Positions 14,396-21,355 of a DNA stretch of 29,879 nucleotides are shown in pieces. The stretch covers positions 1-29,879 of IMG/VR virus record IMGVR_UViG_2537562092_000001; one strand, given 5' to 3'. A program made the position numbers and the translations under genes. Position 1 is the stretch's first letter; the number at the start of each line of letters is the position of its first letter. The notes below the pieces were generated by a model that saw only the letters and a list, made by a program, of their open reading frames with translations, searched no databases and was not told the DNA's origin. Source of the DNA: a virus (Duplodnaviria > Heunggongvirae > Uroviricota > Caudoviricetes).

Positions 14396-14845
14396 TCATA
14401 CTTGGTTCGGATCTACTGGTTTCGCGTGACAATGACGAAAAATCAGCAGTTTGTCATCAGTAGCAGAAAGACGTCTATCCGGTTTCGATCCTGACTTTTG
14501 GCGTAATAAAACGCCCTCCCTTTCTATCAATAGGTTATAGTCAGGATAAAAATCATATTCGTCGACGCCAATATTGTCCGTGACCGAAAACCTTTCACTG
14601 ACTAAGGCTTGGATACGCAAACCAGCCATTTTGTTACGTAGATTTTCGAGAATGATTTTAGCGTGTGATAATTCTGTTTCGACAAACAAAATAATAAATC
14701 CTTCGGCACCATAGAGGAAAACATAAGCACTGATGAGAATATGCTCACAAATCATCGAAGAGAAATTTTTCTGTGTATTACCCTCGGAATTATGTCTATA
14801 ACGATTATTAATTTTCTTGAGGATAATCAATATCCAGCATGGCAA
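14396..14845 (-). CDS. Degenerate GGDEF-domain protein (GAEGF in place of GGEEF), possibly N-terminally truncated
   Basis: YGAEGFIILFVETELSHAKIILENLRNKMAG resembles the GGDEF core (RYGGEEFvvLLPeT.LeeA...aE.lR) with the catalytic motif degenerate. Upstream INNRYRH resembles INDtYGH, and FSVTDNIGV resembles the vSiGva strand. The open frame begins with TTG and lacks the first ~30 residues of a full GGDEF domain. Confidence 0.4.
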   Translation of the reverse strand: MPCWILIILKKINNRYRHNSEGNTQKNFSSMICEHILISAYVFLYGAEGFIILFVETELSHAKIILENLRNKMAGLRIQALVSERFSVTDNIGVDEYDFYPDYNLLIEREGVLLRQKSGSKPDRRLSATDDKLLIFRHCHAKPVDPNQV

Positions 14846-15321
14846 GGGAGAATTGTTTACGTGAGTGCAACGCGATAGAGATTTTCCGCCGCATAATCGT
14901 CAGAATAAAGCGTCGATTTAATAGTTATGTAAGAGAATCTTTACCGTTTCCATGAATGTACCTAAGGTCATTAGTTCTTTTCTGACAGCTTCCGGAAAAT
15001 TTTTATGTAGAGCAGAAGGCGTAACAAGTCTATCCTCCCTCCGCTTCTTTCATTTTCTGGTATTGTGCCGGGGATACGCGTGGCAATTTCCGTGGCCATG
15101 GGGGGGCATCTTACTATACCTACGCTGAAGCGTGTGAAGGTCAGGGTATGATGACATGGTTAAATACTCACGGCCACTGCCTGACCTACTTGAGCAACGT
15201 ACCGAAGCTGCTCAGCCCCGATAAACTAAGAAGCGCAGCGCTATGTTCCTGTCATCCACGACAGTAACCAGGCCCTGCAGAGTACTATGGTACGGTTATC
15301 ATACCGGTTCACCCACGCAAA

Positions 15322-15353
15322 CCAAAAGCACAAAAAACGGTGTTTTCACCGTT
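15322..15353 (-). terminator. Possible rho-independent terminator (minus strand)
   Basis: Hairpin aacggtg-tttt-caccgtt (15336-15353), followed on the minus strand by TTTTGTGCTTTTGG. Confidence 0.35.
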
Positions 15354-15406
15354 GAAAGATAGCTGCTTGCCCGTATCCATAATGAAACCTTCCATGCACT
15401 CAGGAC

Positions 15407-15414
15407 GTTGAATG
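15407..15414. repeat. Target-site duplication GTTGAATG (left copy) of the IS66-family element
   Basis: Identical 8-mer immediately outside both terminal inverted repeats; 8 bp is the duplication size typical of the IS66 family. Confidence 0.8.
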
Positions 15415-15513
15415 GTAAGCATCCGGTGAACTCGCATTGCCGGCCGTTGTGAACCACGCCATTCTGCAGGTTCTTCCTTTATATGCAAAAGAGAGAAAAC
15501 TGATGGCAAAAAA

Positions 15514-15801
15514 ATGACCCCGGCGCAGCGACGCCAGCACTACGACGCCTGGCGCGTCAGCGGCATGTCCCGGACCGCGTATGCCCGGCAACACGGCATC
15601 AACAACAAAACTTTCTGGCATCTCTGCCGCGCCTTCTCCGCTGACGACGCCCGTGGCCCCGCTCCGGCTGATAACAGACCAGCCATCCTGCCGGTCACCC
15701 TCTCCGTCAGTGACACTGCCACCCTGAAACTTCAGTGCGCCTGCGTCACCGCCTCTCCGGCCGGCATCGCCGCCATCATCCGGGAGCTTAACCTGTGCTG
15801 A
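15514..15801 (+). CDS. IS66-family accessory protein TnpA-like (Orf1)
   Basis: 95-aa first ORF of the element, overlapping the start of the next ORF. Assignment is by position. Confidence 0.5.
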   Translation: MTPAQRRQHYDAWRVSGMSRTAYARQHGINNKTFWHLCRAFSADDARGPAPADNRPAILPVTLSVSDTATLKLQCACVTASPAGIAAIIRELNLC

Positions 15802-16133
15802 GCCCTCATTCCCTCTGGCTCGTCCGCGAGCCTGCTGACATACGCGCCGGCATCGACTCCCTGACGCGACTCGCCACTCAGGCCGCCGGGCATCCGCCCC
15901 GGGAAGGCGAAGCCTTCCTCTTCACCGGGAAAAAACGCACCCGCATGAAACTCCTGATGTGGGACCGCCACGGCGTCTGGCTCTGCACCCGCCGCCTGCA
16001 CCAGGGCGCCTTCCGCTGGCCCCGCGACGGCGACACCACCTGGTCGCTCACGGCGGAACAGTTCGCCTGGCTTACCGCCGGCGTTGACTGGCTGCGTCTC
16101 TCTGCCAGCCCCCTGCAGAGGTGGACTGAATAA
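15795..16133 (+). CDS. IS66-family TnpB (Orf2)
   Basis: 112-aa ORF LWLVREPADIRAGIDSLTRLATQAAGHPPREGEAFLFTGKKRTRMKLLMWDRHGVWLCTRRLHQGAFRWP, matching the conserved IS66 Orf2 pattern. GTG start overlaps the tnpA stop. Confidence 0.75.
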   Translation: MLSPHSLWLVREPADIRAGIDSLTRLATQAAGHPPREGEAFLFTGKKRTRMKLLMWDRHGVWLCTRRLHQGAFRWPRDGDTTWSLTAEQFAWLTAGVDWLRLSASPLQRWTE

Positions 16134-16207
16134 CCTCCTGTGCCAGAATCATAATACGGGCAGCTTCTTATCAGGATGTTCCCGCCCGCCTCTGTCATCA
16201 TGGCTGC

Positions 16208-17883
16208 ATGACAGATGACATCCTGAACACCACACAAAACCCCGATGAACTGCGCCGTCTGGCAACAGCGCTGCTGACGGCACAGGCATGCGAATATGAG
16301 CAGCGCCTTCATAACCTGAATACCGTCAACACCACGCTGGAACAGCGCCTCCATAACCTGAATACCGTCACCACCACGCTGGAACAGCGTATCCATGACC
16401 TTAATGCCGCCATGCAGGCAGAAAAAACCGCATATGAACAGCGTATCCGGGAGCTGGAGGAGGCCCTGAAGCTGGCCCACCAGTGGCGCTTCGGGCGTAA
16501 AAGCGAGCGCCTCCCGGCCAGCCAGAAACCACTGGCAGATGAGGACGCGGCCAGCGATGAGGCTGATATCACCCGGCAACTGAGCGACCTGCTGCCGGTG
16601 AAGGAGAAAACCGGGAAGAAGCCGGCCCGTCACCCCCTGCCGGCACACCTGCCGCGACAGGAAACCGTACTCATGCCTGAGACCGGTAGCACCTGTCCGG
16701 ACTGCGGAAGTGAAATGCGACATATCCGCGACGAGGTGAATGAGGTGCTGGAGTATGTACCGGCACACTTCGTGGTGAAACGGACCGTGAGACCGCAGTA
16801 CAGTTGCCCGTGCTGCGACACGGTGCACAGTGCCGTGCTGCCGCCGGCAGTCATCGACAAAGGGCAGCCGGGTCCGGGTCTGCTGGCGCAGGTGGTGACC
16901 GCGAAGGTGCTGGATCACCTGTCACTGCAGCGGCAGCAGAAGATATACGCCCGTGAAGGGGTACAGTTGCCGGAAAGCACGCTGACGGACTGGTTCGGGC
17001 CGACGGCGGCGGTGCTGTCGCCGCTGGCGGCAGCCCTGAAACGTGACCTGCTCAGGCAACCGGTGCTGCAGGCGGACGAGACGCCGCTGCAGATACTGGA
17101 TACGCGGAAAGGGAAAGTCCGGAAAGGGTACCTGTGAGCATACGTGAGTGCGGCGGGCAGTGCCCGGGACATCGTGGTGTACGACTGCCGTCCGGGGCGT
17201 GCGGGGCAGTATGCGTGTGAGATGCTGAGCGGGTGGTCGGGGACTCTGGTGGCTGACGGTTATGCCGGTTACCGGGCGCTGTTCCGTGACGGGCAGGAAG
17301 GGGCCCCTCCGGCGGCACCGGGTATCTGTGAGGCGGGGTGCATGGCGCACGTGCGCAGAAAGTTCATGGAGCTGTACAGAATGAACGGCAGTCCGGGGGC
17401 GAAGGAGGCGCTGAAACAGATACGGGCGCTGTATATCCTGGAGCAGACCATCCGGCAGCGTCCGGCAGAGCAGAAATGGCGATGGCGACGGCGGTACGCG
17501 AAGCCGCAGATGGAGGCGTTCCACAGCTGGCTGAGGGCGACGGAAAAGACGAGCGCGCCGGGTGGCAGGCTGCACGGTGCGGTGACGTATGCCCTGAAGC
17601 GTTGGCCGGCGCTGGAAACATACCTGAATGACGGACGGGTACCGCTGGACAACAACCGGAGTGAGTAGATGATGCGTCCGGTGGCGCAGGGGCGGAAGTC
17701 ATGGCTGTTCGCGGGTTCGCTGCGGGAGGAGAGCGGCTGGCGGAGCTGCTGACGCTGCTGCACACGGCGAGGCTGAACGGTCTGGAGCCAGTAGTCTGGC
17801 TGCGTGATGTGCTGGAGAAGCTGCCGTCATGGCCGGCGTCCCGGCTGGATGAACTGCTGCCTTACCGCCATCCGGCGGACTGA
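16208..17883 (+). pseudogene. IS66-family transposase TnpC, disrupted by two in-frame nonsense codons and a frameshift
   Basis: In-frame TGA at 17135-17137 (...KGYL*AYVS..., where TGG Trp is expected in the conserved GYLW motif), in-frame TAG at 17666-17668 (DNNRSE*MMRP), then a frameshift near 17700-17730 before the conserved C-terminus ...GERLAELLTLLHTARLNGLEPVVWLRDVLEKLP. Zinc-ribbon-like CPDCG...CPCC and the DDE region are recognisable. Confidence 0.8.
16298..16410 (+). repeat. 42-bp tandem repeat (about 2.5 copies) inside tnpC
   Basis: gagcagcgccttcataacctgaataccgtcaacaccacgctg, then gaacagcgcctccataacctgaataccgtcaccaccacgctg, then a partial third copy; encodes EQRLHNLNTV(N/T)TTL repeated. 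Confidence 0.7.
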
Positions 17884-17938
17884 ATACGCCCTGCCATAAC
17901 GCCGGTGATCGCGCCATGCGAGTTCACCGGATGCTTAC

Positions 17939-17946
17939 GTTGAATG
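17939..17946. repeat. Target-site duplication GTTGAATG (right copy) of the IS66-family element
   Basis: See left copy. Confidence 0.8.
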
Positions 17947-18182
17947 TACGTTTTTGGGATTTACTGACGGATATGAATAACCGGCCCATGAAGGAGTACG
18001 GCAAAACCAGCGCAGAACACTTCCGTATGCGCTCATTTGGGGCGGGATTTGCACAGTATTCAGCTTCCAGAATCTGTACACTTTTCCACTCACACAGCTT
18101 CCTCAAAATACAGCCTATTGCTCTACGCTTCTCTCTGTAGAACACCTGTCTTCGGTATTTTGGCGCAAAAACTATGTGATAT

Positions 18183-18925
18183 TTACAGTTCCAAGCGGCT
18201 CGTTGCCATTCGCCAGTCCTTCAACGGAATCGTCCATTTCTGGGACGCAGACTGGATTGCCAGCCACACCACTTTTTTCACCGAGTCGTCTGTCGGGAAC
18301 ACTTTACGCTTTTTGATCGCATGGCGGATCACGCTGTTTAGCGACTCGATGGCATTCGTCGTATAGATCACTTTGCGGATGTCCGTTGGATAAGCGAAGA
18401 ACGTGGCAAGATTCGGCCAGTTAGCCTGCCAGCTTCGGCTGTCAGCGCCGGTGAAACATCTGCGTCATACAGTTCTTTGAACGCAGCAGCTATCTCACGA
18501 GTGGTCATCCCTTTGGCATACAACGAGAGGATCTGGTTATCCATCCCGGTAATACGGGTCTGATTTTTCTTTACCAGTTGTGGTTCGAAGGTACCGTCAC
18601 GATCGCGCGGAGTACGCAGTTCCAGTGGACCGTCGCCTGTGATAACGGTCTTTGTGGAATAACCGTTGCGGGAGTTAGCTCCTAGTCTGGGCTGATTTTT
18701 CTCATACCCAAGATGGTGTGTCATCTCAGCATTGAGAGCGGCTTCAACGCTGAGCTTTTTCAGCAGCCGATCAAACTGACTGAGGTCTTCAGAGGTTTTG
18801 AGGTTTTTGGCCAGTTCGTTAGCCAGAGCCTGTAACTGTTTTTCATCCATAAATTAACCTTCATATGATGCTGGATTGAACATATCAAAATCAGGCGATT
18901 ACACAAATCTATGTACAGGTTCAGC
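18183..18925 (-). pseudogene. IS256-family transposase, internally deleted and frameshifted
   Basis: N-terminal part (18368-18850) ...HHLGYEKNQPRLGANSRNGYSTKTVITGDGPLELRTPRDRDGTFEPQLVKKNQTRITGMDNQILSLYAKGMTTREIAAAFKELYDADVSPAL joins directly, in a different frame, to the C-terminal part (WQANWPNLATFFAYPTDIRKVIYTTNAIESLNSVIRHAIKKRKVFPTDDS...KWTIPLKDWRMATSR). The central DDE core is missing. Confidence 0.65.
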
Positions 18926-19645: not shown

Positions 19646-19868
19646 TGAGGTAGCCTGAGTTTAACGGACACTCCTTCCTGAAATAGAATGGCATCAGAAG
19701 GAGCTAATAATGAGCAGAAAAACCCAACGTTACTCTAAAGAGTTCAAAGCGGAAGCTGTCAGAACGGTTCTTGAAAATCAACTTTCGATCAGTGAAGGCG
19801 CTTCCCGATTATCTCTTCCTGAAGGCACTTTAGGACAATGGGTTACCGCCGCCAGAAAAGGGCTCGGT
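19646..19868 (+). mobile_element. IS3-family (IS600-like) left end plus 5' orfA fragment
   Basis: Terminus TGAGGTAGCCTGAGTTTAACGGACAC at 19646, then orfA start at 19710 (MSRKTQRYSKEFKAEAVRTVLENQLSISEGASRLSLPEGTLGQWVTAARKGLG). IS-type sequence ends at about 19868, where the frame continues into unrelated coding sequence. Confidence 0.6.
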
Positions 19869-20072
19869 AAGAGTCAGCAATTACGCCAGCGTGTAGCCGC
19901 TGAGACAGATCCAATTCGCGCAGCATTCCTCTTGGGGCAGATTAGCAAACAGGTAAGCCTTGCTCCAAAACCAAAGAAAGCCATCAAGCCAGAGCCGGAA
20001 GTACGTGGTGGCGGTGCTGATGCGAAACAAGACGAATTCAACAAATTATGCCCCGGCGCAAAAATCGAATAA
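19869..20072 (+). pseudogene. 3' fragment of the phage gene upstream of coat (possibly scaffolding protein), fused to the IS fragment
   Basis: Only one open frame exists here (...ISKQVSLAPKPKKAIKPEPEVRGGGADAKQDEFNKL...), ending 11 bp before the coat start. Scaffold identity is inferred only from P22-like gene order. Confidence 0.3.
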
Positions 20073-20083
20073 GGAAAAGATAA

Positions 20084-21355
20084 ATGCCTAACAATCTCGA
20101 CAGTAACGTCAGTCAAATCGTTCTGAAAAAATTCCTTCCGGGTTTTATGTCAGATTTAGTTCTGGCGAAAACCGTAGACCGTCAGTTGCTGGCAGGTGAA
20201 ATCAACTCCAGCACTGGCGATAGCGTTAGCTTTAAACGTCCGCATCAATTCTCATCCCTCCGTACTCCCACTGGTGATATTTCAGGGCAAAATAAAAACA
20301 ACCTGATCTCAGGTAAAGCTACGGGGCGTGTAGGTAACTACATCACTGTTGCTGTTGAATATCAGCAACTGGAGGAAGCGATCAAGCTTAACCAGCTGGA
20401 AGAAATTCTCGCGCCGGTTCGCCAGCGAATCGTTACCGACCTTGAAACAGAGCTTGCTCACTTCATGATGAATAACGGTGCGTTGTCACTTGGTAGCCCC
20501 AATACTCCAATCACCAAATGGTCTGATGTTGCGCAGACGGCATCTTTCCTGAAAGACCTCGGCGTTAATGAAGGTGAAAACTATGCTGTAATGGATCCAT
20601 GGTCTGCACAGCGACTTGCTGATGCGCAGACTGGTTTGCACGCTTCAGATCAATTGGTTCGTACTGCATGGGAGAATGCACAGATCCCAACCAATTTTGG
20701 CGGCATTCGCGCACTGATGTCTAATGGGCTTGCCTCTCGTACGCAGGGGGCATTTGGCGGAACACTGACAGTCAAAACACAGCCAAATGTTACCTATAAC
20801 GCAGTTAAAGACTCATACCAGTTCACTGTAACATTGACCGGAGCGACAGCCAGCGTTACAGGTTTTCTGAAAGCTGGTGATCAGGTTAAATTCACCAATA
20901 CCTACTGGCTGCAACAGCAGACCAAACAGGCGTTGTATAACGGAGCCACACCAATTAGCTTCACTGCAACGGTTACTGCTGATGCTGATTCAGACGGCAG
21001 TGGCGATGTGACGGTTACGCTTTCTGGTGTTCCGATTTATGACACTACAAACCCGCAGTACAACTCTGTAAGTCGTCAGGTAGCGGCAGGCGATGCCGTA
21101 TCTGTAGTAGGCACTGCTAGCCAGACAATGAAGCCAAACCTGTTCTATAACAAGTTCTTCTGTGGACTTGGCTCTATCCCACTGCCGAAACTGCACAGTA
21201 TTGATTCTGCTGTTGCAACATATGAAGGTTTCTCCATCCGCGTACATAAATACGCAGATGGCGATGCCAACGTGCAAAAAATGCGCTTCGACTTACTGCC
21301 TGCATATGTGTGCTTTAACCCTCACATGGGCGGTCAGTTCTTCGGTAATCCGTAA
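20084..21355 (+). CDS. Major capsid (coat) protein, P22/Sf6-like
   Basis: 423-aa ORF directly upstream of gp4- and gp10-like genes. The size matches the Sf6-type coat. It does not match the P22 gp5 sequence as I recall it, so the call rests on synteny and size. Confidence 0.65.
   Translation: MPNNLDSNVSQIVLKKFLPGFMSDLVLAKTVDRQLLAGEINSSTGDSVSFKRPHQFSSLRTPTGDISGQNKNNLISGKATGRVGNYITVAVEYQQLEEAIKLNQLEEILAPVRQRIVTDLETELAHFMMNNGALSLGSPNTPITKWSDVAQTASFLKDLGVNEGENYAVMDPWSAQRLADAQTGLHASDQLVRTAWENAQIPTNFGGIRALMSNGLASRTQGAFGGTLTVKTQPNVTYNAVKDSYQFTVTLTGATASVTGFLKAGDQVKFTNTYWLQQQTKQALYNGATPISFTATVTADADSDGSGDVTVTLSGVPIYDTTNPQYNSVSRQVAAGDAVSVVGTASQTMKPNLFYNKFFCGLGSIPLPKLHSIDSAVATYEGFSIRVHKYADGDANVQKMRFDLLPAYVCFNPHMGGQFFGNP

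Follow-up and report, generated by a model that had tools for sequence, protein, structure and literature searches.

An IS66-family insertion sequence with intact ends and a decayed transposase gene, probably inherited vertically at one locus of the Escherichia coli chromosome

Insertion sequences of the IS66 family are about 2.5 kb long, carry terminal inverted repeats (IRs) that start with GTAA, and encode a DDE transposase, TnpC, equipped with a zinc finger and a leucine zipper. An 8-bp duplication of the target and a layout of three open reading frames have been described for the family (PMC6778807, citing Machida 1984 and Han 2001). Here we describe an element found in a 29,879-nucleotide stretch of DNA (IMG/VR record IMGVR_UViG_2537562092_000001; hereafter the window), which has the order tnpA-tnpB-tnpC in common with IS66 of Agrobacterium and with IS679 and ISEc8 of E. 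coli, a likeness that is drawn from the family description. These are separate elements, and the copy in the window differs from them in that its transposase gene is dead. An intact relative with 97.2% nucleotide identity is carried by the Salmonella enterica IncC plasmid pSB109 (NZ_CP101857.1 103501-105985); it shares the three-gene layout and the IR start GTAAGCATCCGGTGAA with the window copy, has its own 8-bp duplication (GAAATTAC) at a plasmid site, and its tnpC is open (TnpC WP_111995052.1, 544 aa). Using this relative as a reference, together with copies from E. coli genomes and metagenomes, we examined how the element in the window came to combine intact ends with a broken transposase gene. 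The copy is very probably a dead member of the IS66 family that has been inherited vertically in a part of the E. coli chromosome rich in ISs.

An IS66-family element within an older IS21-family gene

The element spans positions 15415-17938 of the window, a length of 2524 bp, or 2540 bp when both direct repeats (DRs) are counted. Its ends, its accessory genes and the flanking target gene are as follows.

15077..15414, plus strand: left part of the target, an IS21-family istA relic (PGAP "IS21 family transposase, frameshifted, incomplete"; aligns to istA of pS65EC)
15407..15414, no strand: left copy of the target-site duplication, 8 bp, GTTGAATG, identical to the right copy
15415..15440, plus strand: left inverted repeat (IRL), outer 23 nt (15415-15437) a perfect match to the right one; starts GTAAGC
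15514..15801, plus strand: tnpA, 95 aa, open (NCBIfam NF047593, IS66 TnpA, 42.1 bits, cut-off 28; PGAP WP_000186597.1)
15795..16133, plus strand: tnpB, 112 aa, open (PF05717, E = 1.4e-31; NF033819, 104.9 bits, cut-off 50; RefSeq WP_000950719.1)
17913..17938, minus strand: right inverted repeat (IRR), outer 23 nt (17916-17938) a perfect match to IRL
17939..17946, no strand: right copy of the target-site duplication, 8 bp, GTTGAATG, identical to the left copy
17947..18030, plus strand: right part of the same istA relic (gapless across the junction, 78% identity)

Positions 15415-15440 pair with 17913-17938 over 26 nt at 96%, and all 23 of the outer 23 nt are paired, which bears out the perfect 23-bp terminal repeats and the identical flanking 8-mers reported by the initial annotation. 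The IRs fall within the size range of the family (approximately 15-30 bp) and begin with 5'-GTAA (GTAAGCATCCGGTGAACTCGCAT); GTTGAATG on both sides has the family's length of 8 bp; tnpB, as recognized by PF05717 and NF033819, lies directly upstream of tnpC; and tnpA, as recognized by NF047593, lies upstream of tnpB and overlaps its start by 7 nt. A search of TnpA against Pfam gave no match. The element is thus an IS66-family insertion sequence with genuine ends and a genuine target duplication. Upstream of tnpA the window has a run of seven A residues against eight in the pSB109 relative, and this difference was considered as a further lesion but is not counted, since the 95-aa TnpA meets position 7 of the NCBIfam profile at residue 7; judged by this alignment, TnpA looks N-terminally complete. 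Within the element, antisense open reading frames of 346, 217 and 164 aa matched no family in a Pfam search and were treated as spurious products of a segment of 62-65% GC, and an Rfam search of positions 15000-18400 likewise returned no family.

The flanks identify the target as istA from an older IS21-family element, and excising the IS together with one DR copy makes the two parts of this gene continuous (relic coordinates are given as window = L001 coordinate + 3406, L001 being another copy of the locus). When the flanks are joined with one 8-mer they align without gaps to an intact IS21-family istA, and when joined with two they leave an 8-nt gap; the intact homologue has a single GCTGAATG at the insertion point. 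The repeated 8-mer is therefore a true target duplication, beyond chance. An unoccupied site in E. coli was sought with a 600-nt joined-flank query in 5426 genomes, and no record covering at least 80% of the query was found; the flanks are present at 99% identity or above in 161 records, and the site is filled wherever they exist. In place of an empty E. coli site, IS21-family istA genes on plasmids served as a paralogous one.

Three lesions in tnpC and their frequencies

The tnpC gene and the features within it are listed below, with the lesions defined against the intact pSB109 relative, which reads TGG, CAG and GGGG at the three places.

16208..17883, plus strand: tnpC pseudogene (DDE transposase), repaired product 558 aa (PF03050, E = 2.4e-91; NF033517, 448 bits, cut-off 180)
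16298..16381, plus strand: 42-bp tandem duplication, in frame (2 x 14 codons), copies 93% alike, within the coiled-coil N-terminal region of tnpC
17135..17137, plus strand: lesion 1, TGA at codon 310 (intact relative TGG, the Trp of GYLW)
17666..17668, plus strand: lesion 2, TAG at codon 487 (intact relative CAG, Gln)
17724..17726, plus strand: lesion 3, 1-bp deletion G4 to G3, frameshift at about codon 506 (intact relative GGGG)

On the repaired translation TnpC is of the IS66 type, with further matches to the zinc-finger, leucine-zipper and C-terminal modules (zf-IS66, LZ_Tnp_IS66 and DDE_Tnp_IS66_C; PF13005, PF13007 and PF13817), but the gene itself is a pseudogene. The TGA codon is located downstream of the ADET motif and upstream of the DGY and CMAH motifs, and the frameshift takes away the IS66 C-terminal domain; with one G added to the run at 17724-17726, the reading frame continues to the natural C-terminus. 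Both in-frame stops named by the initial annotation were recovered at their positions, the frameshift that it had placed near 17700-17730 is now pinned to a single deleted G, and tnpA and tnpB are uninterrupted in the window as it had stated. That tnpC is a pseudogene is already known from public RefSeq/PGAP annotation, in which genes of the window type are labelled "frameshifted; internal stop" and copies with G4 "internal stop" only. The 42-bp duplication had gone unmentioned; the Salmonella isoform has no counterpart and shows a 42-nt gap.

The frequencies of the three lesions differ among the approximately 148 carriers, which correspond to about 150 E. coli chromosomes and were counted by sorting the matches to short BLAST queries into bands of identity. 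TGA is present in all of them (~148/148), and its 61-nt context is identical in 147 of the 148, the variant (L006) differing at position 17116 with the stop kept. The 61-nt context of lesion 2 is found as in the window, with TAG, in 56 of 148 carriers (about a third); where sampled E. coli copies depart from the window at position 17666 (four copies), they all read CAG. Of the 156 records that match the 63-nt context of lesion 3, about 10 agree with the window, which puts the frameshift in about 10 of 150 carriers (~7%). TGA is consequently the sole disabling lesion in roughly 92 genomes, and the label "triply inactivated", previously given to the element, holds for the window but not for the population, in which most carriers have TGA alone. 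The three lesions look nested, from TGA through TAG to G3, with the nesting of G3 within TAG shown directly for nine fully identical genomes (of ~10 with G3 and 56 with TAG).

These distributions also bear on whether the stops and the frameshift are artefacts of sequencing or assembly in an element that is really intact, a caveat raised from the letters alone. The frameshift does sit in a G homopolymer, which is a typical site of error, and many assemblies have G4 there. However, the window is matched at 100% over all 2540 bp by nine independent complete E. coli genomes, which derive from different hosts and laboratories, two metagenome contigs agree at 100% over the 2075-2294 bp that they contain, and PGAP independently marks tnpC as a pseudogene. 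Matches without any difference over 2540 bp, in the same flanks, include NZ_CP031105.1 (with tnpC, labelled "frameshifted; internal stop", at 881032-882707) and NZ_CP116106.1 (strain DETEC-P829). Furthermore, among the alleles read base by base (seven E. coli chromosomal copies and four metagenome contigs), every G3 allele is accompanied by a private, synonymous SNP, 16444T (the window, L001 and contigs L015 and L016), and all five G4 copies have 16444C, a linkage that identifies G3 as a clade marker and not a random error. Together with the constancy of the TGA context, the identical genomes, the two contigs and the linkage to 16444 dispose of the caveat, and the chance that the element is really intact is negligible.

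A single locus and the question of activity

All carriers (~148) have one copy of the element, at the same chromosomal site and in the same flanks. In metagenomes, an intact TGG allele was sought with a 20-mer probe bearing R at the stop position, and all four matching contigs carry TGA and TAG and, where they extend beyond the element, have the same flanks. This uniformity argues against the suggestion of the initial annotation that the copy might be a non-autonomous element with working ends, which an intact cognate TnpC encoded elsewhere moves in trans. Its perfect IRs and open tnpA and tnpB would suit such a role, and a helper could in principle arrive with the intact 97% relative on its conjugative Salmonella IncC plasmid. 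However, the same defect is not seen at several sites with duplications of their own (148 of 148 in one place), and carrier genomes have a median of one place per genome and no intact cognate transposase. The comparison with other copies in the same genome that the initial annotation had called for uncovered no second copy, and no intact tnpC, above about 85% identity; relatives at 80-90% occur in just 12 of 170 records. The four relatives examined at 80-86%, on plasmids and on one other E. coli chromosome, all have a tnpC that is frameshifted or truncated, at different codons, and the only intact relative differs from the window at two positions in each IR (positions 17-18 at both ends, GG against CT). 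A search for the host range of intact relatives among GTDB species representatives, which says little because it depends on exact 8-residue words, gave one match, to a Serratia MAG at 56% identity. With one copy per genome, one site and no intact cognate copy alongside, no mobilisation in trans is seen, and we consider it very improbable.

A second route to activity would be leaky decoding, in which UGA is read by a near-cognate tRNA-Trp and a little full-length, wild-type TnpC is made in the ~92 genomes with TGA alone. UGA is the leakiest stop codon of E. coli, and a single transition separates each nonsense codon from its sense original (TGG to TGA, CAG to TAG). Against readthrough, no carrier has a raised copy number or a new site, and the sampled copies show nonsense, frameshift and missense changes 3' of TGA and no synonymous ones, which suggests that this region is not under selection. 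The plain TGG of the intact relative likewise argues against a conserved recoding site, and we regard residual activity of this kind as highly unlikely. A programmed recoding site in tnpC, whether for readthrough or frameshifting, was rejected on similar grounds: the intact relative has TGG, CAG and G4, other relatives break at different codons, and the E. coli copies vary in whether they have TAG and G3. Under the preferred reading of a dead, vertically inherited copy, the element would no longer move.

Neutral decay and the question of constraint

The history most consistent with these observations begins with an active tnpA-tnpB-tnpC element, which would have inserted once into istA of the older IS21-family element and generated the 8-bp duplication. 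A TGG to TGA change at codon 310 would then have disabled tnpC upstream of two of the three conserved motifs of the catalytic region, and later lineages would have acquired CAG to TAG, followed by G4 to G3, as well as several missense changes and an in-frame deletion, this later damage accumulating because no selection was left on tnpC. The window belongs to the most decayed subclade, which is a small one. From the present-day alleles we infer that insertion came before TGA, in what order the lesions arose and that activity was lost; the insertion of an already defective copy is also compatible with these alleles, as every known TGA copy is at one locus.

The initial annotation had set pristine ends against a decayed transposase, and both are indeed observed, but the contrast is no paradox. 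Relative to the ancestral E. coli locus, the copy in the window has only about four derived mutations in 2.5 kb. The expected number in the 62 bp of IRs and DRs is ~0.1, with a probability of ~0.9 of none, and the expected number of disabling lesions in tnpA and tnpB at the rate of tnpC is ~1.1, with a probability of ~0.33 of none. The ends, tnpA and tnpB would therefore be intact because they are small targets and mutations have been very few, and since neutral expectation covers the intact ends, these point neither to selection nor to mobilisation in trans. For genome scanning, this suggests that intact IS ends beside a broken transposase are to be expected under neutrality when mutations are few. 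Beyond correct annotation the importance of the locus is slight, although it is a tidy, datable example of a pseudogene decaying step by step within a fixed IS copy, and its three lesions could mark lineages within the E. coli clade that bears it.

Neutral decay was also weighed against exaptation, in which the host would retain tnpA, tnpB and a 309-aa N-terminal TnpC fragment that has both the leucine zipper and the zinc finger. These products might, for instance, bind DNA and so inhibit IS66 elements that newly arrive, with the ends preserved as their binding sites. All three frames are open in seven of seven sampled E. coli copies, and dN/dS against the Salmonella isoform is 0.19 before TGA and 0.39 after it, both of which would be in keeping with such a role. 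However, the few copies sampled already include missense changes in tnpA (L37H), tnpB (W75R) and N-terminal tnpC (E169A, R242W and K303N, as well as a 12-bp deletion); chance suffices for the open accessory genes and the intact ends at the probabilities given above; and dS, too, is unequal in the two halves of tnpC, which means that mosaic ancestry may account for the dN/dS contrast. Retention by the host thus has very little probability. Even when co-opted open frames (such as a truncated-transposase inhibitor acting on IS66-type ends) and trace activity of TGA-only copies through UGA-to-Trp readthrough are taken as joint alternatives, the chance that either applies would be slim. Neutral decay is in agreement with the variation among the E. 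coli copies, in which 12 SNPs comprise nine missense, one nonsense and two synonymous changes, a spectrum that shows no constraint.

Structure and family membership of the element

Comparison with related copies indicates that the element studied here is very probably an ordinary dead IS66-family copy in neutral decay. Its components are as follows.

15415-17938, IS66-family element (2524 bp)
15514-15801, plus strand, tnpA (95 aa)
15795-16133, plus strand, tnpB (112 aa; 7-nt overlap with tnpA)
16208-17883, plus strand, tnpC (interrupted gene)

The terminal inverted repeats (IRs) extend over 26 nt at 96% identity, with the outermost 23 nt (GTAAGCATCCGGTGAACTCGCAT) free of mismatches, and GTTGAATG lies on both sides of the element (15407-15414 and 17939-17946), bearing out the perfect 23-bp repeats and identical direct repeats (DRs) described in the initial annotation; tnpA and tnpB are likewise open, as it had stated. 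GC content is 62-65% within the element versus 38-50% in its surroundings.

IS66 elements are characterized by an 8-bp duplication and a three-ORF layout (PMC6778807), and all defining features of the family open to testing were found. TnpB matched PF05717 (E = 1.4e-31) and NF033819, while the repaired TnpC matched PF03050 (E = 2.4e-91), zf-IS66, LZ_Tnp_IS66, DDE_Tnp_IS66_C and, at 448 bits, NF033517. TnpA passes NF047593 (42.1 bits; cut-off 28) and has no match in Pfam. Further family traits present are GTAA-type IRs, the 8-bp duplication and a length of ~2.5 kb. A domain search returned no family match for antisense ORFs inside the element, nor was there an Rfam match within it.

The nearest intact relative, which served as the reference for the lesions, is an element (97.2% identical) on the Salmonella enterica IncC plasmid pSB109; its TnpC of 544 aa is open, and a duplication of its own, GAAATTAC, flanks it. 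Every E. coli copy examined carries a 42-bp in-frame tandem duplication in tnpC (16298-16381; two 14-codon units, 93% identical) that is absent from this Salmonella isoform. It falls in the N-terminal coiled-coil region and, since 14 residues make two heptads, the coiled-coil register would survive it. Upstream of tnpA, the A run at 15501-15507 is A7 in the window and A8 in the intact relative (region 15495-15516). In the window an ATG ahead of tnpA starts a mini-ORF of 4 codons (MAKK*), its TGA overlapping the tnpA start (ATGA); in the intact relative the same ATG is in frame with tnpA and extends TnpA by MAKK.

Reality and spread of the tnpC lesions

Lesions in tnpC relative to the pSB109 element, and their contexts among E. 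coli carriers (short queries centred on each site; counts reflect context identity, not allele calls)
Lesion; position; change; effect; context identical to window; context different
1; 17137 (TGA 17135-17137); G->A; TGG->TGA, Trp310 of GYLW; 147/148; 1
2; 17666 (TAG 17666-17668); C->T; CAG->TAG, Gln487; 56/148; 92
3; 17724-17726; G4->G3; frameshift at about codon 506; about 10/156; 141 in the 95-99% band, 5 in the 90-95% band

The two stops and the frameshift reported earlier are thus confirmed, with the frameshift now placed at the G run, where the addition of one G reopens the frame up to the natural C-terminus. The TGA lies downstream of the ADET motif (289) and upstream of DGY (350) and CMAH (378), motifs assigned to the catalytic region in this family, and one third into the PF03050 domain (218-509), a position that would leave a 309-aa product without most of the catalytic domain. 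Against the Salmonella isoform, dN/dS is 0.32 for tnpC overall, and its values of 0.19 before and 0.39 after the TGA are not readable as a contrast in selection because dS is unequal between the two halves.

Sequencing error, previously held open as a caveat, can be set aside. Among complete E. coli genomes, 158 records contain the element at 99% identity or more (median one place per genome), and nine genomes, differing in host and laboratory of origin, match it at 100% over the full 2540 bp. Two metagenome contigs are also 100% identical over as much of the element as each contains, G3 included, and strains DETEC-P829 and F8 are 100% identical to the right half of the window. Across the aligned copies and metagenome contigs, G3 travels with a private synonymous SNP, 16444T, which identifies it as the marker of a clade, not an error in a homopolymer run. 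The pseudogene status of tnpC is already in public annotation: RefSeq/PGAP records it as 'frameshifted; internal stop', and for copies one base longer as 'internal stop' only.

Alleles were checked base by base in an alignment of seven chromosomal copies. The sole TGA-context variant reflects a SNP at 17116 and retains the stop, the TAG-context variants carry CAG in 4/4 sampled, and the G-run variants carry G4 in 5/5. These frequencies are compatible with nested lesions, TGA being universal among carriers, TAG present in about a third of them and the frameshift in about 7%. Direct demonstration of the nesting is confined to the nine fully identical genomes, and the window is a member of the most decayed subclade. 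SNPs among sampled E. coli copies comprise 9 missense (including tnpA L37H and tnpB W75R), 1 nonsense and 2 synonymous changes. In a sister lineage (E. coli copies L004 and L007), still CAG and G4, a 12-bp in-frame tnpC deletion (window 16636-16647) is a further independent lesion. Together, the SNPs and the deletion show the pattern of sequence without constraint.

Intact ends and alternative explanations

With the Salmonella copy as outgroup, about 4 derived changes (16444, 17477, 17666 and the G deletion) were assigned to the window lineage since the E. coli locus ancestor. For about 4 changes over 2.5 kb, about 0.1 are expected in the 62 bp of IRs and DRs, with P(0) about 0.9; at the tnpC rate, about 1.1 disabling lesions are expected in tnpA and tnpB, with P(0) about 0.33. 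No selection is therefore needed for intact ends or open tnpA and tnpB, and the proposal that the ends were kept intact while the transposase decayed becomes unnecessary.

The initial annotation also raised a non-autonomous copy mobilised in trans, for which perfect ends and open tnpA and tnpB would be suited; this is unsupported. All 148 carriers (148/148) have exactly one copy, chromosomal, and no second site, copy-number rise or intact cognate copy was found in their genomes. All four metagenome matches to a first-stop probe carry both TGA and TAG, and their flanks, where present, are the same. The only intact relative departs at IR positions 17-18 of both ends, mirrored: CT in the window isoform (15431-15432 and 17921-17922) versus GG in the Salmonella isoform (L003 3017-3018 and its mirrored right end). 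Being mirrored, the difference leaves the IRs perfect in each isoform, and the two ends have changed in concert between the isoforms.

The 80-86% relatives examined are frameshifted or truncated in 4/4 cases at different codons, which argues against a conserved recoding site in tnpC. These relatives (L008, L010, L011, L012) lie on three plasmids, of E. coli, E. marmotae and Enterobacter, and on another E. coli chromosome adjoining tssB/tssC; in the collections searched, the sub-lineage seems to have few intact copies. Leaky UGA readthrough past the first stop, like exaptation of the open frames, is very unlikely and without support.

Insertion site and neighbourhood

The flanks occur at at least 99% identity in 161 records, essentially the carrier set, and no flanks joined without the element were found among the E. 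coli genomes searched. With one 8-mer retained, they align gaplessly across the junction to intact plasmid IS21-family istA genes (78% identity), indicating that the element inserted into an older IS21-family element; an uninterrupted istA homologue has GCTGAATG at the junction point, and keeping both 8-mers leaves an 8-nt gap. This alignment shows the 8-bp duplication to be real. IS fragments are nested in this region, making it an IS graveyard:

15077-15414 and 17947-18030, IS21-family istA relic hosting the IS66 element
18046-18193, IS200C-like fragment
18183-18850, frameshifted Mutator/IS256-family transposase gene

A ~168-bp segment recurs inverted at 7004-7170 and 18193-18360 (about 90% identical, about 11 kb apart), bracketing an autotransporter gene, a GntR regulator and the IS66 element. 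Beside the FadR/GntR regulator gene, a 149-aa ORF (14399-14845, minus strand) scores 21.7 bits for GGDEF, below the cut-off of 23.8; one RefSeq genome has a shorter, 360-nt gene there, named 'nucleotidyl cyclase domain-containing protein'.

Further downstream, an IS3-type orfA (HTH_Tnp_1, 19710-20069) is immediately followed by the gene for a P22-type coat protein (20084-21352). Colinearity with strain AMSCJX02 ends at 19869 and the junction is common to only 2/5426 complete E. coli genomes, which suggests that an IS3-associated rearrangement brought the island together with part of a P22-like prophage.
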